DNA from: a virus
Taxonomy: Duplodnaviria > Caudoviricetes
IMG/VR virus record: IMGVR_UViG_3300049141_000058
Coordinates: 1 to 60,290 of that record
Strand: one strand, 5' to 3'
Length of the DNA: 60,290 bases
Under the pieces are notes generated by a model that ran no database searches, was not told where the DNA came from, and saw only the letters and a program-made list of their open reading frames with translations. Position 1 is the stretch's first letter; each line of letters opens with the position of its first letter. The position numbers and the translations under genes were made by a program. Positions 2,570 to 40,176 of this stretch are shown one piece after another.

Positions 2570-3438
2570 GGAATGGTCTGGGCGGGCGCGGGTGCGGCGC
2601 ATGTCGGTCGTTCTGTCGTCCCGCCCCGCATCCGAGCGCTTTACTGCGAGGGGTAGCGCATCCTATCCCGGATTCCAAGTTGAGGTGTTGACGCAGCTCA
2701 GAGGCTTCGGGCGGGGAGTCTGATTTCGGTGCGCGGTGATTTGAGCTGATCACTGCGGCTGGCTACGGTCGCAGCACGTGGGGGCGGCGTGCGACTTGCA
2801 GCCCCCACCAACGAGGGTGGTTCAGTTTGGTCTACCGTCCACAGCATGGGCGAGTTCCGGCCGTCTCGTCAGACCATGCGCGGATCGGGACTATTGCGAC
2901 GGAAGGGATGTACGGGTGCCGTGCACAGTGATCGACCAGAGTGCACATCTTGCAAAATCGCAGGTCAGAGCCACCCTAACGCACCTCCAGATGCGTCCGG
3001 GATCCGCCCTACTACGCAAGCGGCTGCGGCAAGCTAGCACCGTCGGGGCAAGCTACCGACTGAGATCCTTTCGGCCAAAACATATGCCCCACTTGCCCGA
3101 CTCGGAAGGAGAGAGGCGTCGCCGAACAACACACCGCAGGCCAACGGGCACGCCGACACCCTCCCGTAATCACCCAGCTCAGGCATCCACGCAACCCCCA
3201 CTGCTCGACATTCATGCAGGTCAGGGGGCGTAGTAGACAACTATGTTGACAACTCGGAAGGAAACTCGCGGATGCTCCGAAACCGATCGCTAGCGTTGTG
3301 TCTCATTGCCGACCGCGGGCTACGGTCCGTGCAACGTCGAACGGCCGGGCGGTTCGCACCCGCCCGGCCGTAGCCCGACCAGCGAGTTCGCACCTCGCTG
3401 ATCAATCAACCATCACTCGCCAGAGAGAAGGTCTCGTC

Positions 3439-3747
3439 ATGAGCGTATCGCAGCGCTGTACTACACATCAGCGCAGCAATCTCACCGCCGACCGCTTGCT
3501 GGAAGATTCCCTCGCCGACTTGTTCACCCGGTTCGGGGTGGCCGTGTCCGTCATGGAGGCGGACGCCGGCTTCACCGGCGGCGCCTACGTCCACACTGAC
3601 GGCTCGCTGCTGTTCGTGCGGCCCGCGGGCAGGCCGGAGGCGGAGTGGGAGTTGACCGCGCGGGCGATGCTGGGCGCCGCGCTGCGGGTGCCGCTACCGC
3701 CGCTGCCGGAGCCGTACCGGCTGACGGAGATGGAGCCATCCGAGTGA
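3439..3747 (+). CDS. hypothetical protein immediately upstream of the CRISPR-like mini-array
   Basis: ATG 3439 after GAGAAGG; 102 aa with coding-like GC3 in the 3' two-thirds. Confidence 0.65.
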   Translation: MSVSQRCTTHQRSNLTADRLLEDSLADLFTRFGVAVSVMEADAGFTGGAYVHTDGSLLFVRPAGRPEAEWELTARAMLGAALRVPLPPLPEPYRLTEMEPSE

Positions 3748-3829
3748 CCGTCTAGGGCCGCGTTTCGCGTTCTCCCACGGACTGCCGACGGGTTGTGCCA
3801 TAGTGGTTGGGCCGCCGGGGAACCGACGG

Positions 3830-4059
3830 TTGCTCCCCGCCGATGCGGGGGTGTTCCGACTCTGAATCGCCCGGCTGTTGAGGGAGTTTCAGTTGTCCCC
3901 GCGGCAGCGGGGATGTGCCCGATGCGCATGACGACATCGCGGCTCCCCGCGCCAGCGGGGATGGCCCTGATTCCAGGGGCGTGCAGTACTGCTCCCCGCC
4001 GACGCGGGGGTAGACCGTGAACGCGGTCACTTGCTACCCGCGACAGCGGGAATGCGGAG
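3830..4059 (+). CRISPR. cas-less type I-E-like CRISPR mini-array (5 divergent 29-nt repeats; spacers 33/19/20/13 nt)
   Basis: R1 3830-3858 TTGCTCCCCGCCGATGCGGGGGTGTTCCG; R2 3892-3920 GTTGTCCCCGCGGCAGCGGGGATGTGCCC; R3 3940-3968 CGGCTCCCCGCGCCAGCGGGGATGGCCCT; R4 3989-4017 CTGCTCCCCGCCGACGCGGGGGTAGACCG; R5 4031-4059 TTGCTACCCGCGACAGCGGGAATGCGGAG. R1-R4 keep the CCCCGC-N4-GCGGGG stem of I-E repeats; R5 keeps CCCGC-N4-GCGGG. Confidence 0.85.
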
Positions 4060-4088
4060 CCCCACCCGATCACCGGGTGGGGCTCCGC
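4054..4088. terminator. bidirectional terminator hairpin
   Basis: Perfect 15-bp stem GCGGAGCCCCACCCG-ATCAC-CGGGTGGGGCTCCGC between the convergent array and 4112..5113. Confidence 0.8.
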
Positions 4089-4111
4089 CGTTTCATCCTG
4101 CAGCGCGGCGG

Positions 4112-5113
4112 TCAGCCGGCGGTCTCGTCGTCCTCGATGTCGGCGTAGTCGATGCGGGCACCGGTCGCCGCGGCGGCCCGGGCGGCCACCTGCCGGTGCC
4201 AGGACGCCGACCACCTCCCGCCCCGGTGCGCGGCGGCGTACTCCTCGTCACTGCGGTACGTGACGATCGTCGTGTCCTCGTCGTCCACGGACTCCACCAG
4301 CTTGGCGACTGCGGCGGCGGTCTCCTCCCGCAGTTCCGCGATCTCGGGCCGGATACGGCCGGGGATCGGGTCGCGGCCCTGCTCCCAGGAGCGCAGCGTG
4401 CGCGGGTTGACCCGCAGCAGCCTGGCCAGGTGGTCACCGGTCAGCCCCAGCTCCTCCCTGGCGATGCGCAGCTCGGCCGGCGTGATCGGGTCCTCGTCGG
4501 CGAGGCCGTCGCGCAGCTGCTTGAGGTAGCTGTCCAGGCCGTGGCAGACGACGACCGGGTGCTCACCGCACGCCTGCAGGTCGCCGAGGATCGCCTGCTC
4601 GATCTGTTCGAGGCGGGCGTCGGTGGTGTCGGCGGTGATGCCGTACTCGTCGGCCTCCTGGCCGTTGACGGCTGCGTCGATGTCCCACACGCCGACCAGG
4701 TCGCTGTCGGGGAACCCCTGCGTGTCCTCGTCGAAATGGCCTCCGTCGATCGTCGGCAAACCGAGGAACTTCTCGATCTCCTCCTCAGCGGCGATGGCGT
4801 CCTCGTTCATATCGGCGACGGTCGACTCTCCGTTCCAGACGGCTTCGGTACCGGCGATGATCCGGTCGGCGAGCGGGGCGATCTCTTCCATGACCCGGTT
4901 GGCGGCGTCCGCGGTCAGGACCGGGATCTCGTAGCGGCGGTCCAGGCCGTGGCGCACGGTCTCCGGGAGCGCGGTGCCGATCTCCGCGTTGTAACTGGCG
5001 TACAGGGTGCCGGCCTGGGTGTCGAGTTCGATGTAGGCGGGCTGCGGCTTGGTCTCGCCGTCGTAGTGACGGAACAGTTCGGTGGCGTTGGTGCACGGGA
5101 TGATGCGGACCAT
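4112..5113 (-). CDS. acidic N-terminal domain fused to a C-terminal Aca2/YdiL (DUF1870)-like HTH domain
   Basis: From residue ~210: ITPAELRIAREELGLTGDHLARLLRVNPRTLRSWEQGRDPIP...IVTYRSDEEY...SWHRQVAA follows the Aca2 pattern; the N-terminus is very Asp/Glu-rich. Confidence 0.75.
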   Translation of the reverse strand: MVRIIPCTNATELFRHYDGETKPQPAYIELDTQAGTLYASYNAEIGTALPETVRHGLDRRYEIPVLTADAANRVMEEIAPLADRIIAGTEAVWNGESTVADMNEDAIAAEEEIEKFLGLPTIDGGHFDEDTQGFPDSDLVGVWDIDAAVNGQEADEYGITADTTDARLEQIEQAILGDLQACGEHPVVVCHGLDSYLKQLRDGLADEDPITPAELRIAREELGLTGDHLARLLRVNPRTLRSWEQGRDPIPGRIRPEIAELREETAAAVAKLVESVDDEDTTIVTYRSDEEYAAAHRGGRWSASWHRQVAARAAAATGARIDYADIEDDETAG

Positions 5114-5159
5114 GGCGGGTCCCCTTTCCAGGGTAAGTCTCGGGTAGGTGGGTGCAGGC

Positions 5160-5666
5160 TCAGAGGGCGGCGACGGCGGCGCGGACGGCGGCGAAGATGC
5201 GGGCGGCGATCTCTTCGCGGTCGAGGCTGCGCGGGTTGCCCCAGCCCCACTTGATGTAGACCTTGCCGTCGGCGACGTTGAAGTAGACCTTGTCGACGGC
5301 GGTGGCGAGCCGGCCGCCTTCGGCGTTGGAGACCTTTTCGCCGTCGAGGGTGGCGTAGCTGATGCTGCCGGACTTGTAGTGGTCCAGCTCCAGGCCGGGG
5401 ACGGTCTCGAAGTCGTTGAGGTAGATGCGGTCGTGGCCGTTCTTCTGCCAGCGGCGTCCGCCGATCGCGGTCATCGTCTCGACGGAGTAGACGACCTTTC
5501 GGGCGGGGCGCTTCATCTGGCCGATGGCGATGCGGGCGGCGAGGGAGGCGGTGTCGATGACCCAGCGGCCGGCGGTCTTGGTGGCGGCGACGGCGCCGCG
5601 GCGGCACCAGGTGCGGACGGTGGCGACGGTGACGTTGGCCTGAGCTGCGGCGAGAGCGGTGTTCAT
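5160..5666 (-). CDS. HTH_17/MerR-like N-terminus fused to an uncharacterised phage domain; candidate anti-defence protein
   Basis: AAAQANVTVATVRTWCRRGAVAATKTAGRWVID HTH; C-terminal GGRRWQKNGHDRIYLN motif; GGAG RBS. Confidence 0.75.
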   Translation of the reverse strand: MNTALAAAQANVTVATVRTWCRRGAVAATKTAGRWVIDTASLAARIAIGQMKRPARKVVYSVETMTAIGGRRWQKNGHDRIYLNDFETVPGLELDHYKSGSISYATLDGEKVSNAEGGRLATAVDKVYFNVADGKVYIKWGWGNPRSLDREEIAARIFAAVRAAVAAL

Positions 5667-5724
5667 GATGATCTCCGAGTGACTTACGGAGTGGGCTGGG
5701 GCTGATCCCCTGCCTCACGCGAAC

Positions 5725-5754
5725 AACGTACACCCTAAATTAGGGTGCGAGCAA
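5725..5754 (-). promoter_or_regulatory. sigma70/HrdB-type promoter with an inverted-repeat operator in the spacer
   Basis: TTGCTC(5754-5749)-N18-TACGTT(5730-5725); spacer contains CACCCTAA-A-TTAGGGTG (5731-5747). Confidence 0.7.
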
Positions 5755-5919
5755 GCCCGTTGCTGAAAGTCGCCGCCTGAACACTCAACAGGTGCTGCCG
5801 GGGGGCCTGTTGCATCGACCTCGTGACCCCGGCCACACCCCGCCCAACTCGCTTGCCGTACTCGTCAGTACACCCCGACGCTGCTGCCTCAGCCCGGTTT
5901 GAACCTCTGGGGGCCATTG

Positions 5920-14380: not shown

Positions 14381-14983
14381 TCACGTCGCGCCTCGGCGCG
14401 CTCGCTTAGCGGCAGCTGTTCGGGCGTTGTTGCAGGTTCGGCAGTGCCGACGGCCGTCGAAGACGTAGGTGTTCGCCTCGTCGTAGGGGTGGCCTTGTGC
14501 GCAGTGCGTCTTGGTGCCGTTGATCGCCCAGCTCTTGCCACGGCGCGTGTTCTCGGATCCGGTGACGGGTTCGAGGTGTTCGACGTTGATGCAGCGACGG
14601 TGGGCGCACTCGTCGCCGCCCAGGCAGGTCGCATCCCGGTTGTGGCAGGTGTGGTCCAGATTCATGCCGTCGGGTATTGGGCCGACCGTGAGCTCATAGA
14701 TCGCTCGGTGGGCCAGCTTCAGAACTCCGTCGACTCTGATCTGCCCATAGCCACGCTTGCTGAGCGTGCCGACGTACAGTAGGCAACCGTTGGGGCCAGC
14801 GACGGTTCGGGACATGAGGCGCTCCAGAGGAACGCCATGAACGAGGGCCAGGTTGAACTCGCCAGCGCGCTTCAACTTCCGGCGCCAACGCCCGTAGCAG
14901 GTCTGGCATCGCTCGCGCGCATAGAACTTCGACGAGCCGCACTCGATACAGCGGCGCTCGCTGGCGCCCTGAGCGGCGCTCAC
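14381..14983 (-). CDS. HNH homing endonuclease with Zn fingers
   Basis: GYG..AHR..DHTC..CINVEHLEPVTGSEN plus THCAQGHPY..RHCRTC; lower GC in the 5' half. Confidence 0.9.
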   Translation of the reverse strand: MSAAQGASERRCIECGSSKFYARERCQTCYGRWRRKLKRAGEFNLALVHGVPLERLMSRTVAGPNGCLLYVGTLSKRGYGQIRVDGVLKLAHRAIYELTVGPIPDGMNLDHTCHNRDATCLGGDECAHRRCINVEHLEPVTGSENTRRGKSWAINGTKTHCAQGHPYDEANTYVFDGRRHCRTCNNARTAAAKRARRGAT

Positions 14984-16344
14984 GACGCCGCCATGTCAAC
15001 AAAACGGGCGTAATGCCCTTGGAAGGCGACGGTGATCGTCGCGGTGGGCCCGTTGCGATGCTTGGCAACGATCAGGTCGGCCTCGCCGGCCCGCGGGGAG
15101 TCCTTCTCGTAGGCGTCCTCGCGGTGCAGGAGGATCACGATGTCCGCGTCCTGCTCGAGCGACCCGGACTCGCGCAGGTCGGAAACCATCGGCTTCTTGT
15201 CCTGCCGCTGTTCAGGGCCGCGGTTGAGCTGGGAGAGAGCGACGATGGGAACTCCCAGGTCCATGGCGAGGGTCTTGAGGCCACGGCTGATCCGGGACAC
15301 TTCCTGCTGCCGGTTGTCGCCGCGGCCGGTGGACTCGCCGCCCATGAGCTGCAGGTAGTCGATGACGACGAGGCCGAGGCCGTGCTTGCGCTGGACGCGC
15401 CGGCAATGCGAGCGGATCTTGGCGAGGGTGACGCCGGTGTCGGCGACGATGTGCAGCGGCGACGCCTGCATGTCCTTCCCGGCCTCGATCAGCTTCATGA
15501 CCGCGGCGTCGTCCACGGGCCCCTTGCACTTCATCCAGTGCAGCGGGTAGCGGGCCTGAGCGGACAGGAACCGCTTCTCGAGTTCCTTGCGGCCCATCTC
15601 CAGGGAGAAGAACACGGTGGGGATGTCGTTGCGGATCGCGGTGTGGCGGGCGAAGTCCCCGGCGAGGACCGACTTGCCCATGGCGGGCCGGGCGGCGACG
15701 AGGATGAACTGGCCGGGCTGCAGGCCACCGGTGAGGGAGTCGAAGTCGGCGAAGCCGGTGAGGAGGCCCTCCTTGGGCCCGTTCTCGCGGATGTCGACGA
15801 CTTCAGCGACGGTGTCCATGATGTCGACGCCGATCGACAGGTCGTCGGCGCCCATGTCGGTGAGGCCGGCGAGTCCTTCGAGGGTGTCGAAGGCGTCCTG
15901 GACGATCTCGTCGGCGTCACGGTCGCGGCTGTAGACGCTGCGTGTCATGCCGTTCGCGGCGTCCAGCACCTGCCGGAGGACTGCCTTCTCGCGGACGATC
16001 TCGGCGTGGGCCTCTGCGTGGGCGACGGTGGGCACCGCCGTGACGAGGTCGAACAGGTACGTGCGGTCTCCGCAGCGCTTGAGGTCGCCGTCCTTTTCGA
16101 GCCGGTTGCCGAGGGCGATGGGGTCGTGCGCTTCGCCCTTGGCGTGGAGGTCGACGAGCGTCTCGTAGATCGTTTCGTGGGCGGGGCGGTAGAAGTCGGT
16201 GGGCTTGAGGATCTGGACGACTTCTTCGGCGGCCCGCCCCGACAGGATCATCGAGCCGAGGACGGCCATTTCGGCGGCGAGGTCGAACGGCGGTGCCAGG
16301 GCGGGCCGGTCGTCGATGGGCGGCTCGTCGTGGTCGTGGGTCAC
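14980..16344 (-). CDS. dnaB: replicative DNA helicase DnaB
   Basis: AARPAMGKS, FSLEM, IDYLQL, LSQLNR, DLRESGSLEQDAD, KHRNGPT. Confidence 0.97.
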   Translation of the reverse strand: MTHDHDEPPIDDRPALAPPFDLAAEMAVLGSMILSGRAAEEVVQILKPTDFYRPAHETIYETLVDLHAKGEAHDPIALGNRLEKDGDLKRCGDRTYLFDLVTAVPTVAHAEAHAEIVREKAVLRQVLDAANGMTRSVYSRDRDADEIVQDAFDTLEGLAGLTDMGADDLSIGVDIMDTVAEVVDIRENGPKEGLLTGFADFDSLTGGLQPGQFILVAARPAMGKSVLAGDFARHTAIRNDIPTVFFSLEMGRKELEKRFLSAQARYPLHWMKCKGPVDDAAVMKLIEAGKDMQASPLHIVADTGVTLAKIRSHCRRVQRKHGLGLVVIDYLQLMGGESTGRGDNRQQEVSRISRGLKTLAMDLGVPIVALSQLNRGPEQRQDKKPMVSDLRESGSLEQDADIVILLHREDAYEKDSPRAGEADLIVAKHRNGPTATITVAFQGHYARFVDMAAS

Positions 16345-16928
16345 GCGGGGGTCCTCCTGTAGTCGGTTCCGGTGAACTTCGCGGCGGTCGAGCCGCCGTC
16401 GGCGAAGCGGGACATGGTGCGCGGGCCGAGCGGCTCGAGCGTCGGCAGGTTGGTGGAGATCAACGTGGGCAGCTGGTTCTGCCAGCGGGTGTCGATCAGT
16501 TGGGCGACCGCGTCGACGGTCCACGGGTACAGCTGGGTGGCGCCCAGGTCGTCGAGAGCCAGCAGCGGCGCCTCGGCCCAGGTGCGGAGCTTTTCCCGGT
16601 CGACGGGCCGGTCAGCGGCGGCTTTGAACTCGAAGTCGGAAACGAGGTAGTAGCGGCCGAACCAGCCGCGGCGGATGAGCAGTTCGCCGATCTTCCACAG
16701 GTGCCAGGTCTTGCCGGTGCCGGGCTCCCCGAGAAGCAGCAGCGAGGCGTGGGAGCCGGCGAGGTAGCGGTCGATCCATTCGCGGACGTCGGGTCGGACG
16801 ATGCCGTCGGCGGCGAATGCTTTGGGCCGGCGGGCGAGGTAGCGGTCGAGGGCCTGGGAGCGGATCTCGGCGCGAGCTGCGGCCTGTTCGGCGTCGTGGC
16901 GGGCTCGCCGCTCATCAGGTGTCGTCAT
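16341..16928 (-). CDS. DnaC/IstB-like AAA+ helicase loader
   Basis: GEPGTGKT Walker A, LLALDDLG Walker B, PTLISTN. Confidence 0.9.
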   Translation of the reverse strand: MTTPDERRARHDAEQAAARAEIRSQALDRYLARRPKAFAADGIVRPDVREWIDRYLAGSHASLLLLGEPGTGKTWHLWKIGELLIRRGWFGRYYLVSDFEFKAAADRPVDREKLRTWAEAPLLALDDLGATQLYPWTVDAVAQLIDTRWQNQLPTLISTNLPTLEPLGPRTMSRFADGGSTAAKFTGTDYRRTPA

Positions 16929-17824
16929 CAGAAAGGCCTCGCGTTCTCGTAGTCCTCTTTGGTGGGTACGGGTGCTGCGGCGCCAGTGGCGGGGTGGGGG
17001 CGGTTCGGGCCGGTCCAGCCGTCGGGAACAGCGCGGAGTTGGGGTCGGCTGGCGCCCGGAGCGGGTTTCGGCGGGAGTTCGCGCCAGCCCTTGAGGAAGT
17101 AGTTCGCCGACTCCACGTCGGTGCGGGCGGCGGCTTTGAGGGCGTGGTCGACCATGGCGGGGACGCCGCTCTTGGAGATCATCGCCAGGATGGGGAACCA
17201 CCCATTGCCCTCGAAGGGCCAGCGGACGTAGACGCCGGCTGCGGTGATGCCGTCGACGAGCGGGCGCGCGGCTTCCGGGATGCCGTACTCGTCGGGCTGC
17301 TGCGACCTCTCCTGCTTGCTAGCTAGAGGGGTAGTAGTTGAGGGGTTAAGAGGGGTAGGGGTCCCGGATTCCGGGACACTGACGTCCCGGATTTCCTGAC
17401 ACTGAGACGGCTCAGTGTCCCGGTTTTCGGGACTCTGATGGTTCGGTTCAGTGTCAGGAGTTCTGGGACTCTGAGGCCTGTCAGTGTCGGGGGTTCCGGG
17501 ACGCTGAGGGGGGGCGTCAGTGTCCCGGTTTCCCTGACACTGAACTCCAGGAAACTTGGCGATCTTGTACTTGGCGGCTCCGTTCTTCTGGCCGGCCGCC
17601 AGCTTTTCGAGTGCGCCCTTGACGGTCAGCGACTTGAGGACGGCGTACAGCTGCGACCGGCTGAGCTTGGCCCCGCGGAGCACCTCGGGTCGCTCGACGC
17701 TGTGCCACGTAACGCGGGTCTCGTCGTTGGCGTCCTCGGCCAGGACGACAAGGAGGAGCTTCTCCCGGTGCGTCAGGGTCTCAGGGGCGCCCTGGAGCAC
17801 CTCGACCATCAGGCGGATTCCCAC
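16928..17824 (-). CDS. replication initiator (lambda O-like, N-terminal wHTH) with internal iterons
   Basis: EKLLLVVLAEDAND N-terminus; lies upstream of the DnaC/DnaB genes; repeated xRDT/PDT peptides. Confidence 0.8.
   Translation of the reverse strand: MGIRLMVEVLQGAPETLTHREKLLLVVLAEDANDETRVTWHSVERPEVLRGAKLSRSQLYAVLKSLTVKGALEKLAAGQKNGAAKYKIAKFPGVQCQGNRDTDAPPQRPGTPDTDRPQSPRTPDTEPNHQSPENRDTEPSQCQEIRDVSVPESGTPTPLNPSTTTPLASKQERSQQPDEYGIPEAARPLVDGITAAGVYVRWPFEGNGWFPILAMISKSGVPAMVDHALKAAARTDVESANYFLKGWRELPPKPAPGASRPQLRAVPDGWTGPNRPHPATGAAAPVPTKEDYENARPF
17361..17538. repeat. replication origin iterons (6 palindromic 17-mers)
   Basis: GTCCCGGNTTCCGGGAC-like units at 17361, 17384, 17417, 17453, 17486 and 17522, mostly flanked by TCAGT/NCTGA. 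Confidence 0.85.
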
Positions 17825-30181: not shown

Positions 30182-31435
30182 ATGGCTCACGCCGAGAAGG
30201 TCTTCAAGGTCAAGAACGGCAAGAAGACCACCAAGTACACATGGCGATGCCGCTACAAGAAGCCCGACGGGTCCTGGGGAAGCGAGCCTGGCTTCCCCAC
30301 GAAGACCCTGGCTAAGGAGTGGGGCGAGCAGCAGGAAGCCGCCATCCGCGAAGGCCGCTGGATCGACCCTGAACTGTCCCGTAAGAAGTTCGGGGACTTC
30401 GTCAAGGAGTGGATGGCTGCGCAGAAGCCCCGCGGCCGGACGGAGATGAACCGGTGGGAGCGCCTGGAGTCGCACATCCTGCCGCGCTGGCGGGACACCT
30501 CACTGATCGCGATCAACTGGTTCGAGGTCGAGGCGTGGGCGCGCACCCTCACCTGCGCGCGCAGCACGACCAAGGACTGCGTGCAGTTGATGAGCCGCAT
30601 CATGAACGGTGCTGTCGACGCCCGGCATCTGCTCGTGAACCCGCTTGCCGGGCGTCGGCTCACCGGCCTGCCCGCGGACACGGCGAAGAAGAAGACGGAC
30701 GAGGAGACGGTGGCCGAGCCGGAGGTCGTCCTCCAGCTCGGCCGCCGGCTGGGCCCGGTGTACGGGCTGCACGTCGTGACCGCGGCGTGGACGGGCCTGC
30801 GCTGGGAAGAACTCGTCGGCCTGCACCGGCGCAACGCCCTGCTGGAGCGGCGTCAGAAGCATGACGGGGCTGTGTTCACGTGCCCGATCATCCGGGTGGA
30901 CGCGGAGGAGGGGGCGCTCGCCGAGTACTACAAGCGGGACGAGGACGGCAAGCGGCGCTGCTACCGGGCGCTGGAGCCTCCGAAGAACGAGAAGTCGGCG
31001 CGGGACGTGGACTTGCCGCCGTTCCTCGCGCAGCTGCTGGAGAAGCACTTGGCGGACTGGCCGCACGAGTTCGTGTTCACGACTAAGTCGGGCAAGTGGT
31101 GGTGGCGGAGCTACTGGTTCGAGGTGCTGCGGCCGGCCGCCGACGGGCGGGGCGAGCGCGAGAAGGGCCGTGGCCGGCCGCCGAGCCCGGCATGGGAGCC
31201 GATCATGCCGGGGCTGACGATGCGGGATCTGCGGCACACGCACGACACATGGCAGGAGCAGATCGACGTGCGGCCGGTGTTGGGGTACGAGCAGATGGGG
31301 CACAAGTATCCTGGCATCAAGGGCACGTACCGGCATCCGACGCCGCCGATGCGGATCGCCCGCCTGGAGGGTCTGCAGTCGCTGTACGAGCGGGCGATGG
31401 AGAACCTGGGCTGGGAGAGCATCTGGGATGGCTGA
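30182..31435 (+). CDS. int: tyrosine integrase
   Basis: TGLRWEEL (R), PKN (K), RDLRHTH, QMGH, TYRH catalytic Tyr; N-terminal arm-binding domain. Confidence 0.95.
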   Translation: MAHAEKVFKVKNGKKTTKYTWRCRYKKPDGSWGSEPGFPTKTLAKEWGEQQEAAIREGRWIDPELSRKKFGDFVKEWMAAQKPRGRTEMNRWERLESHILPRWRDTSLIAINWFEVEAWARTLTCARSTTKDCVQLMSRIMNGAVDARHLLVNPLAGRRLTGLPADTAKKKTDEETVAEPEVVLQLGRRLGPVYGLHVVTAAWTGLRWEELVGLHRRNALLERRQKHDGAVFTCPIIRVDAEEGALAEYYKRDEDGKRRCYRALEPPKNEKSARDVDLPPFLAQLLEKHLADWPHEFVFTTKSGKWWWRSYWFEVLRPAADGRGEREKGRGRPPSPAWEPIMPGLTMRDLRHTHDTWQEQIDVRPVLGYEQMGHKYPGIKGTYRHPTPPMRIARLEGLQSLYERAMENLGWESIWDG

Positions 31436-38986: not shown

Positions 38987-39160
38987 TCAGTCTTCGCGGT
39001 GAAGCGGGGACTCTCGGCAGCGCGGATTCGTGCAGATGACCTTCTCTTCCTCGCTGGCCGGCTCCATGTAGGTGCGAAGGCTGAAGGTGTTACAGCCGGT
39101 GCACCGGCGTTGGGGGCCGGGCTTGGTGCTGTTGAGGAACTCACTGAACGGCGTCGTCAT
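38987..39160 (-). CDS. small Zn-ribbon protein
   Basis: CTGC...CTNPRC, ATGA-coupled to the recombinase gene. Confidence 0.55.
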   Translation of the reverse strand: MTTPFSEFLNSTKPGPQRRCTGCNTFSLRTYMEPASEEEKVICTNPRCRESPLHRED

Positions 39161-40176
39161 AGTCCGATGTCCTCCGATGCGGCGTCGGTCCACTTGTCGG
39201 CTTCGCGGATGTAGCCCCAGAAGGCGGGGCTGTTCTCGGCGTGGCCGGACTGTTCGCGGATCTTCTCCTCTCGCTTGCCTGCGCGTCGAGAGGTGGTGAT
39301 GAATCCGGCCCGCATGCTGTGTCCGGTCAGCCGCACCGACAGGCCGGCGCGTTCGGCGTTGCGAGCGATGATCTCGCGGACGGCTTCCGGGGAGAGGGCG
39401 CGGTTGCCGAGGCGGCCGTGGACGGTGATGGGCAGGAAGGAGGGGCCCGAGGTGATGCCTGCGGCGGCGCGCCAGGTGAGCCATGCGCGGACGGGGCAGG
39501 TGTCGGGGTTCTTGCCGTAGTGGACGACGACGTCGCGGGGTGGGCGGCCTTTGACCGCGGGGACGTGGACTTCGAGTCCTTGGCTGACGTGGACGATCGA
39601 CTCGGCGCGGAGGGCGGCGACTTCGGCGGAGCGTCCGGCGATGGCGAAGGCAAGGAGCCAGAGGGCGCGGTCGCGGAGTCCGGTGAGTCCGTCGGCGACG
39701 GCGGCGTTCATCTGCCGGAGCTGTTCGGGTGTGGCTGCGGCGGCCTTCCCTCGGCCGCGCGCCATGCGTTCGGGGTCGTGCTTGAGCGGCTTGAGGGCTT
39801 GCCGGGCGGCGACGGTGGCGGCCTTGGGTACCTCGACGCCGTGTTCGTTCCGGGCGGTGACGGTGACGCCGGTGATCCTGCGGTCGATGCTGTTGGGTGC
39901 GGCGAGTTTGATGGTGTCGAGCCAGACGACGAATCCGACGAGCGTGCCCTTGGTGACGTTGGTGGAGGCGATCCGGTGCCCGGTGCGCTCCCCCAGCCAG
40001 TCGTGGAACTCCTCCCACAGCGCCCAGTCGTTGGCGTAGCCGCGCTTCGTGTTGTGGGGGCGGATGGCGTCGAGGTGCTTCTCGGCTGCCTTTTCCATGG
40101 CGTGCAGGACGGCGAGCGTCGCAGCGTCGTAGATGGCGGGGGCGGTGTCGGACTGGTGGGGGACGACCGCGGTCAC
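39157..40176 (-). CDS. Cre-like tyrosine recombinase/resolvase
   Basis: NTKRGYANDW SAM-like N-terminus; LRDRAL, GRSAEV, GHSMRAG, SGH, GYIR. Confidence 0.92.
   Translation of the reverse strand: MTAVVPHQSDTAPAIYDAATLAVLHAMEKAAEKHLDAIRPHNTKRGYANDWALWEEFHDWLGERTGHRIASTNVTKGTLVGFVVWLDTIKLAAPNSIDRRITGVTVTARNEHGVEVPKAATVAARQALKPLKHDPERMARGRGKAAAATPEQLRQMNAAVADGLTGLRDRALWLLAFAIAGRSAEVAALRAESIVHVSQGLEVHVPAVKGRPPRDVVVHYGKNPDTCPVRAWLTWRAAAGITSGPSFLPITVHGRLGNRALSPEAVREIIARNAERAGLSVRLTGHSMRAGFITTSRRAGKREEKIREQSGHAENSPAFWGYIREADKWTDAASEDIGL

Follow-up and report, generated by a model that had tools for sequence, protein, structure and literature searches.

A cas-less cluster of type I-E-like repeats in a Streptomyces-type phage: a probable array of crRNA-like anti-CRISPR RNAs beside a convergent regulatory operon

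The virus record IMGVR_UViG_3300049141_000058 of IMG/VR, the whole of which (60,290 bp, linear class, estimated to be 76% complete, 69% G+C) is the window analysed here, carries a short cluster of repeats resembling those of type I-E CRISPR arrays, which raises the question of what use a virus would make of CRISPR repeats. An earlier note on this DNA had answered it with an anti-I-E locus combining decoy CRISPR RNAs (crRNAs) with new anti-CRISPR (Acr) proteins encoded by a convergent operon. The RNA half of that proposal proved to be the best reading of the locus, and neither protein gave any sign of being an Acr. The cluster is most likely a phage Cracr-type array, i.e., a set of multiplexed crRNA-like anti-CRISPR RNAs, Cracrs being described in the available text of their preprint as viral mimics of the host RNAs CreA and CreR with short pseudo-spacers (10.1101/2024.10.29.618823).

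The array and its leader

The five repeats lie on the plus strand within 230 bp (3830–4059), at 3830–3858, 3892–3920, 3940–3968, 3989–4017 and 4031–4059, all five being I-E-like hairpin repeats. The pattern TCCCCGC-N4-GCGGGGRT occurred four times in the window, all on the plus strand between 3834 and 4011, and zero times in 100 shuffled sequences. The assignment to type I-E was made because these repeats share stem and handle with a genuine Streptomyces host array located beside cas3 and cse1 (G001), which has a 29-nt repeat and a 61-nt period. The earlier description of a phage-borne and cas-less array was borne out, since the Cse1, Cas7e and Cas6e families, the only three Cas families searched, had no match in the window; by this result and the IMG/VR record, the array is virus-encoded and lies outside any CRISPR-Cas locus, as Cracr arrays do. 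It also has the host-type repeats and short spacers of Cracr arrays, its four spacers measuring 33, 19, 20 and 13 nt.

By repeat alignment, spacer 1 (3859–3891) has the canonical I-E length of 33 nt. Pseudo-spacer 2 (3921–3939, 19 nt) belongs to a class, GATGC-N-CATGA-N-GAC, that recurs in three other arrays (L003, L042 and L058). Pseudo-spacer 3 (3969–3988, 20 nt) is, by sequence comparison, homologous to pseudo-spacers of host CreA-like mini-arrays, and the repeat that precedes it, repeat 3, ends in the 3′ handle ATGGCCCT, 7 of whose 8 bases are those of the host CreA-like handle ATGGCCCC. A 13-nt spacer remnant (4018–4030) separates repeat 4 from the degenerate repeat 5, whose 5-bp stem overlaps that of a hairpin at 4054–4088. 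The 15-bp hairpin said to be shared by the two convergent units turned out to be exact: its arms (4054–4068 and 4074–4088) are 15 nt long and 100% complementary around a 5-nt loop, 24 nt separate it from the stop codon of the leftward gene for a 333-aa protein, and a homologous hairpin exists in the related locus L003. It probably serves the array and the leftward operon alike as a bidirectional terminator; its T-tract is weak and the terminator scan made no call there. The best Rfam match at E ≤ 10, a Burkholderia small RNA, was rejected as a sub-threshold match at chance level driven by this hairpin.

The first repeat is preceded by a leader box, TGCCATAGTGGT (3796–3807, plus strand), conserved in relatives, which may act as an extended –10 promoter element of the form TG-n-CATAGT, and by a 5′ leader hairpin, CCGCCGG-GGAA-CCGACGG (3812–3829, plus strand), recognized by eye and having one mismatch. 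The box was invariant in 8 of 8 aligned leaders, some of which had been found by means of the motif itself, and it recurs in L058, L046, L066 and the prophage-like L144, to which patterns free of the box had led. A short hairpin with a GNRA loop and then the first repeat come after the box in the aligned leaders; in L003 this hairpin has no mismatch and a GAAA loop, and in L009, L016 and L024 its loop is GAGA. Similarly, host CreA-like mini-arrays have a TAGCAT box in the equivalent place. As part of the Cracr-type reading, the stretch 3796–4088 is probably a separate small transcription unit with its own leader box. It had been suggested instead that the array was the downstream part of a unit begun by a 102-aa open reading frame (ORF; 3439–3747, plus strand), which is coding-like, with a G+C content at third codon positions of 0.88. 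This did not hold, the leader box being conserved in relatives with other upstream genes. The ORF had no Pfam or PHROG match and no homologue beside any related array examined; it is placed outside the array unit because upstream genes differ among the related elements, and it is probably a separate gene.

The array does not behave as a canonical CRISPR array, since the start-to-start spacing of its repeats is irregular (62, 48, 49 and 42 nt) and the repeats vary in loops and handles, with a mean column identity of 75%; it was also absent from the list produced by Tandem Repeats Finder. This degeneracy, together with the irregular spacing and the lack of an Rfam match, would suit a host array that was captured and is now decaying without a function, or an intergenic region unrelated to CRISPR that is structured or rich in terminators. 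Such an origin is, nevertheless, very unlikely. At least nine other elements, whose flanking genes differ, retain the leader, the order of the parts and the pseudo-spacers; a class of 20–21-nt spacers recurs across 44 arrays, and the array has been kept in both the window and L003 although the neighbouring 333-aa protein is just 71% identical between them. Moreover, the 7-bp repeat hairpin was kept in 96.8% of 308 pair cells from 44 repeats, with five double-sided changes, and the compensatory stem changes argue against decay. The RNA fold of 3809–4100 had z = –6.0, with repeats pairing together in the minimum-energy structure; it was set aside because any array would pair its repeats together.

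Related arrays and their host counterparts

A related viral contig, L003, encodes the homologue of the 333-aa protein just mentioned, followed by a matching terminator and a three-repeat array. Both of its short spacers are near-identical to those of the window, spacer 3 differing at 1 of 20 bases, and its middle repeat carries a compensatory stem change. Patterns based on leader and hairpin found L008, L009, L016, L022, L024 and a Streptomyces chromosome locus, L013, all of which have, like L003, the leader box and layout of the window; L058 and L144, found without the leader, have an equal box and repeat-spacer layout. These together make up the at least nine Streptomyces-type elements that share both features with the window. 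The locus L001 has a variant leader and adjoins a homologue of the 333-aa gene. By BLAST, the array had no match in phage records and eight weak matches in Streptomyces plasmids, in unannotated DNA. In genome contigs, the leader pattern hit six stretches, of which Streptomyces L013 alone had repeats; the other five had no hairpin within 80 nt. L007, L017–L021 and L023 were discarded as chance matches to the leader pattern, L147 as a coding region, and L146 as an unrelated array. The 21-nt leader motif at 666–686 of the viral contig L007 has no repeats downstream of it. A separate observation concerns the distal ends of the long arrays in L013 (2508–2602) and L022 (5000–5095), which have a common conserved tail made of variant repeats (CTCCGC...GCGGAG stems) around a 37–38-nt segment with an internal inverted repeat.

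A hairpin-to-hairpin pattern with a period of about 49 nt matched 63 stretches in IMG/VR, and 44 arrays were kept by orientation score, loci whose best chain scored below three having been dropped. The lengths of the 135 spacers in these 44 viral or prophage arrays were bimodal: 63 measured 20–21 nt and 26 measured 32–33 nt. The long spacers adjoin the leader and vary between relatives, and the short ones are conserved and fall into sequence classes. It was also observed that many of the IMG/VR loci L030–L089 are cas-less I-E-type mini-arrays with a 49–50-nt period and 20–21-nt spacers, closely preceded by a –10-like box and provided with a terminator hairpin. In type I-E Cascade, every sixth base of the guide is left unpaired with the target. 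Within the class of spacer 2 (window, L003, L042 and L058), positions 6 and 12 each showed three letters, and among the remaining positions from 1 to 15 only position 9 varied. These segments were read as guides, not as filler, because their variation falls at every sixth position.

A counterpart of the short-spacer units was found in Streptomyces I-E loci. Cse1 was above cut-off in 126 of 301 sampled Streptomyces genomes (~42%), and the gap between cas3 and cse1 held a small module in three loci, L110 (G222:C334), L114 (G126:C42) and L141 (G030:C18), the first two having been found among 30 scanned cse1 loci and the third by a pattern search of 401 genomes. L110 could be placed between the two genes because its flanking ORF ends in the Cas3 C-terminal domain (Cas3_C, E = 9.5e-28). 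The module consists of two elements on the opposite strand (about 790–1190 in L110), namely an ORF of ~70 aa with two hydrophobic helices, and two degenerate repeats that flank a 20-nt pseudo-spacer. The TAGCAT box precedes this mini-array in L110 and L114, and none was apparent in L141. Each of the three pseudo-spacers has a matching site preceded by AAC, and this site overlaps the start of the ORF together with its ribosome-binding site. Guide and target match at positions 1–5, 7–11 and 13–14 in the three cases, with mismatches at position 6 in two and at position 12 in all three, and no consistent pairing past position 14. The ORF had no Pfam match and only three homologue clusters in a large protein database; it is a candidate CreT-type toxin, and by analogy the modules are candidate CreTA-like, CRISPR-guarded toxin modules. 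Literature searches returned no account of such modules in Streptomyces, and the word Streptomyces is absent from the main texts of the Cracr preprint, the Racr paper and the CreR preprint. In another host locus, upstream of cas3 (L142, G153:C44), the array opens with a 20-nt spacer followed by ordinary 32-nt spacers. The class of this first spacer (ACGCAGGGCGTC...) also occurs in the phage arrays L024 and L042, and the spacer may serve as a regulatory guide within an otherwise normal array.

Short spacers of phage arrays resemble these host sequences in a position-dependent manner. Spacer 1 of L049 and spacer 3 of L035 match the targets of host modules at 12 of 12 seed positions, and spacer 3 of both L024 and L066 does so at 11 of 12. 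Furthermore, the motif A[AG]GGG.RT stands at exactly positions 7–14 in 8 of 72 short phage spacers, with no occurrence at eight other offsets. Spacer 3 of the window is one of the eight: its positions 7–14 (AGGGGCGT) are identical to those of 3 of 3 host pseudo-spacers, and its positions 7–17 to those of the G030 host. Cracrs are recognized, in the available text, by at least nine matches to a known CreA or CreR next to the protospacer-adjacent motif (PAM) (10.1101/2024.10.29.618823). The sister arrays L049 and L035 reach that number, whereas spacer 3 of the window does not, with 0 of 5 matches at positions 1–5 to the host guides, of which there are three, a small sample.

These observations bear on a pure decoy, in which the repeats would draw Cas6e and Cascade subunits into aberrant complexes and the spacers would have no targeting role. 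The degenerate repeats are compatible with it, as are three of four spacers too short for interference and the failure to find a target for any window spacer in searches of loci, phage, viral, genome and metagenome sequences; sequestration is, besides, established for the solitary repeats called RNA-based anti-CRISPRs (Racrs) (PMC10651486, available text). However, the pseudo-spacers are better conserved between phages than the repeat loops, the variation of the spacer-2 class is concentrated at positions 6 and 12, and a register-specific motif is common to phage spacers, host regulatory guides and their targets. Sequestration alone also fails against systems armed with CreR or CreTA, according to the available text of the Cracr preprint (10.1101/2024.10.29.618823). 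Racrs, finally, are solitary by definition, their finder having dropped clustered repeats (PMC10651486, in the text available), and the window has five repeats in 230 bp where that definition requires none other within 100 bp. A pure decoy is, therefore, a rather doubtful reading, and the identification with a Racr-type element was abandoned.

The long spacer invites another explanation, namely a working mini-CRISPR array that borrows the Cascade-Cas3 of the host and turns it against rival phages or plasmids, as a form of superinfection exclusion. Spacer 1 has the canonical length, and leader-proximal spacers of 30–33 nt vary between related arrays as acquired ones would. Three of the four spacers, on the other hand, measure 13–20 nt, and the short spacers are conserved across phages instead of being variable. 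No protospacer of spacer 1 was found in the related loci examined or in 50,697 phage records, where the best partial match covered 20 nt (E = 4), and a pattern leaving every sixth base free had zero matches in IMG/VR. A defensive array of this kind is quite improbable.

In the preferred reading, that of a Cracr-type array, transcription would start just downstream of the conserved TGCCATAGT box and yield an RNA with a stabilising hairpin at its start and the 15-bp terminator hairpin at its end. Judging from repeat identity, the Cas6e of the host would cleave each repeat hairpin, releasing products with a host-type 8-nt 5′ handle, a 3′ hairpin and spacers of which three measure only 19, 20 and 13 nt and the other 33 nt. 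These would load host Cascade subunits into shortened, interference-incompetent complexes, which would compete with immune crRNAs and bind DNA by seed pairing. Pseudo-spacer 3 would be a copy, since diverged, of the one in a CreA-like host mini-array, by which the phage RNA would keep a host safeguard gene of the creT-like kind repressed while CRISPR immunity is disabled, and pseudo-spacer 2 may act on a second conserved target.

Several results weigh against this reading. The seed of window spacer 3 (positions 1–5, GATTC) differs from those of the host guides (AGCCT, AGTCT), and because of this difference the spacer is not expected to bind those three host targets. No target or host guide for the window spacers was found, either among the related loci examined or in 30 host loci searched out to ~1.5 kb from cse1. 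A search of 401 Streptomyces genomes with the PAM and seed of spacer 3 gave two matches, neither linked to cas genes, compared with four for the reversed control, and two scans of JGI metagenome contigs with spacer target patterns gave 0 and 0 matches. The window guides are consequently tied to the host modules by homology only, as no cognate target was found. Moreover, the Cracr model accounts for neither the 33-nt spacer nor the 13-nt remnant. The creT-like module is known from three host loci only, these use AAC in place of the canonical AAG motif of Streptomyces and Salmonella I-E systems, and it is solely by size and hydrophobicity that the ~70-aa ORF is taken for a toxin. We infer both the transcription of the array and its processing by Cas6e from sequence. 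A simple scan for sigma-70 promoters and terminators called none of either in 3300–5900, which is why the promoters of the array and of the operon are given here as predicted. Rfam had no match in the whole window at gathering score, and the lone CRISPR family matched at E ≤ 10 in 3700–4150 was CRISPR-DR28, on the wrong strand and scoring 18 bits (cut-off 35).

Some matches obtained in the target searches were rejected. Of the two AAN-plus-seed matches, one fell within an oxidase ORF and the other upstream of a lipoprotein gene. With up to three mismatches, spacer 3 matched 127 of the 401 Streptomyces genomes, always with two or three mismatches. This was considered uninformative; the recurring matches resembled conserved coding sequence, and the reversed control also matched many genomes. 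Searched in the same way against its own host genome (≤3 mismatches), the pseudo-spacers of the L013 prophage array matched only the array itself.

The convergent operon and the element

The leftward operon, convergent with the array, encodes a 168-aa protein (5160–5666) and the 333-aa protein (4112–5113). The latter comprises an N-terminal domain (residues ~1–205, PF26929) and a C-terminal domain (~207–325) for which an Aca2-like character had been claimed. Sequence evidence from Pfam was marginal, the match to Aca2_YdiL (PF08965) scoring 20.3 bits against a cut-off of 23.8 (E = 6.6e-4), so that by that score the domain falls outside the family, although many homologues carry a precomputed PF08965 match. 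In PDB sequences, phmmer matched residues 212–313 to Aca2 (7ezy, E = 4.8e-4). The AlphaFold2 model (predicted local distance difference test score 91.5) was similar by Foldseek to 7ezy_A, 7vjp_A and 7b5j_A, with target template-modelling scores of 0.73, 0.78 and 0.72, respectively, and E-values from 2e-4 to 5e-3. Since solved Aca2 structures match the whole domain from residue ~207, the structural model confirmed, despite the sub-threshold Pfam score, the complete Aca2/YdiL fold, i.e., the helix-turn-helix (HTH) and the C-terminal part. The N-terminal domain is acidic, carries the precomputed Pfam assignment PF26929 and also exists as a stand-alone protein of ~210 aa; the structure search gave it no solved relative, and a Protein Atlas search returned no usable match. 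The 168-aa protein is a conserved core gene product with a weak N-terminal match to HTH_17 (22.6 bits, cut-off 27) and no PDB or PHROG match.

Upstream of the operon, the palindrome CACCCTAA-A-TTAGGGTG (5731–5747) is a candidate operator. It is unique in the window, where 0.01 occurrences are expected by chance, and it is conserved in L002, where two copies precede a gene 86% identical, in a locus without an array. The promoter with an inverted-repeat operator proposed for this operon thus stood as regards the palindrome, which is real and conserved; the sigma-70 scan called no promoter. The genes for the 168-aa and 333-aa proteins form a conserved pair, as their homologues have consecutive locus tags and share contigs, and the operon looks like a core regulatory gene pair of a Streptomyces mobile-element family.

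It had been argued that the 168-aa protein, the acidic N-terminal domain of the 333-aa protein, or both, are new anti-I-E Acrs, autoregulated by the fused Aca2-like domain. The setting lends some colour to this idea, as the Aca2 fold was confirmed, the gene that encodes it comes last in an operon behind a conserved palindrome, and the acidic N-terminal domain has no solved relative. The operon also adjoins the RNA array in three of four loci (window, L003 and L001), and Cracrs are often linked to acr genes (10.1101/2024.10.29.618823, available text). The fourth locus, L002, has both genes and no array. Moreover, six arrays with the leader family of the window had no homologue of the 333-aa gene in the flanks examined, and hence the co-occurrence of array and Aca2-like gene that had been anticipated applies only to part of the loci. 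In a large Streptomyces plasmid and phage family, both genes belong to the core and are strongly conserved. The 168-aa protein, which itself has a DNA-binding HTH, was represented by 263 clusters at E ≤ 1e-10, nearly all of 167–171 aa, and the 333-aa protein by 136 homologues, with more than 80 full-length clusters. This wide and near-constant conservation in the one case, and in the other the PF26929 assignment together with the number of full-length clusters, speak against an Acr in either, and neither protein was similar to any known Acr, nor was a validated acr found nearby. New Acr proteins are accordingly an unlikely explanation of the operon, and an Acr role would, as a guess, concern at most the N-terminal domain of the 333-aa protein.

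By its genes, the window is a temperate phage of Streptomyces type or a phage-plasmid. It encodes two integrases, a DnaB-type helicase, RecT/YqaJ recombination genes, a sliding clamp, a C5 methyltransferase, an endolysin/tail-fibre protein and tail genes, and contains an ORF of 1,943 aa. The DNA relatives of the array and operon region were Streptomyces plasmids of ~80–95 kb (24 of 25 plasmid matches); they are circular and have phage-type replication genes, which suggests a phage-plasmid lifestyle. The two integrase-family genes are located at 30182–31435 (plus strand) and 39157–40176 (minus strand). Non-coding tandem repeats with a period of ~33 nt (4.3 copies) at 17361–17531 lie ~0.8 kb from the start of the helicase gene (14980–16524, minus strand) and may be iterons or an origin.

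A reading that joins the three parts, array, host module and operon, can also be formulated, as a so far undescribed arms race peculiar to Streptomyces. Streptomyces I-E systems would carry a toxin safeguard between cas3 and cse1, made of the ~70-aa ORF and its 20-nt guide. The long hybrid arrays of phages and phage-plasmids, with several allele-specific toxin-silencing guides, the GATGC-N-CATGA-N-GAC class directed at another host circuit, and a full-length spacer, would counter it. The protein combining PF26929 with the Aca2 fold would be a partner Acr-Aca fusion that spares the shortened Cascade complexes formed on 20-nt guides. This combination is speculative and rather unlikely to hold as a whole.

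If the Cracr-type reading is true, the hijacking of host CRISPR regulatory RNAs by phages would extend to Streptomyces, the main antibiotic-producing genus, and a candidate CRISPR-guarded toxin module would be located inside Streptomyces cas loci. The arrays could also explain the failure of endogenous I-E tools or of CRISPR immunity in some lysogens, and could provide compact guide architectures for Cascade-based repression in this genus. I-E repeats at a 49–50-nt period are a signature that picks out such arrays in viral databases. The candidate CRISPR-guarded small-ORF module and a second guide class without an assigned target add to the interest of the locus.

Comparison with known systems

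Mini-CRISPR arrays borne by viruses have reportedly been implicated in inter-viral conflict, in studies attributed to Faure et al. 2019 and Medvedeva et al. 2019. Like them, the array of the window is cas-less and short and would rely on the Cas proteins of the host; unlike them, with their full-length, virus-matching spacers, it has three short spacers out of four and no viral protospacer was found for it. With Racrs, it would have in common the mimicry of CRISPR repeats by a phage RNA that has its own promoter, often stands beside acr genes and sequesters Cas proteins. As presented in the available text of their description, Racrs are solitary repeat units, identified by a finder that excluded clustered repeats (Camara-Wilpert et al. 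2023, PMC10651486), and have no guide function, whereas the repeats of the window are clustered. The window consequently fits Cracr arrays better than Racrs, because Racrs are solitary by definition.

As regards the operon, the C-terminal 120 residues of the 333-aa protein have the whole fold of Aca2 (PF08965), and, as with Aca2, its gene comes last in an operon headed by a palindromic candidate operator. The protein differs from Aca2 in the fusion to a 205-residue domain, in having no validated acr nearby and in belonging to a large conserved Streptomyces mobile-element family. A known Acr-Aca fusion protein is AcrIF24, which acts as an Aca. AcrIF24 has been linked to Cracrs (10.1101/2024.10.29.618823, available text).

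The closest likeness is with Cracr arrays. The earlier note had not recognized the combination of a multi-repeat array with an Acr-Aca fusion as a described architecture. Multi-unit phage Cracr arrays, often adjoining acr genes, have in fact been described already, in a set of 219 Cracr candidates, some aimed at Actinomycetota; these arrays act as repressors of cas or creT promoters and work together with Acrs, the reported I-E arrays having two or three spacers, and their hallmark is the short pseudo-spacer, 21–24 nt long in the I-E example that was tested and with a median length of 19 nt in type I-F (10.1101/2024.10.29.618823, in the text available). The array of the window is likewise phage-borne, cas-less and of type I-E, with short pseudo-spacers between stacked repeats in one unit, pseudo-spacers related to host CreA/CreR guides and an operon of possible acr-aca style alongside. 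It departs from the I-E arrays in the text available by its five repeats and four spacers, from the reported arrays by a full-length first spacer, and from the usual definition by fewer than nine PAM-proximal matches between its pseudo-spacers and the host guides found. Its likely target class, a protein-coding creT-like ORF of Streptomyces I-E loci, also differs from the casA promoter addressed by the tested Salmonella Cracr in that text.

Host CreA and CreR consist, in the available text of the CreR preprint, of two degenerate repeats and a short pseudo-spacer partly complementary, on its PAM-proximal side, to a promoter region of the cas locus (10.1101/2023.03.10.532045). The Streptomyces modules in L110, L114 and L141 share that anatomy and differ from the CreA/CreR systems presented there in using AAC instead of AAG and in a target that overlaps the ribosome-binding site of a small ORF. 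The copy in the window is phage-borne, multiplexed and provided with a different seed, and its unit of repeat 3, spacer 3 and repeat 4 is identical to the G030 host unit at 34 of 43 bases.

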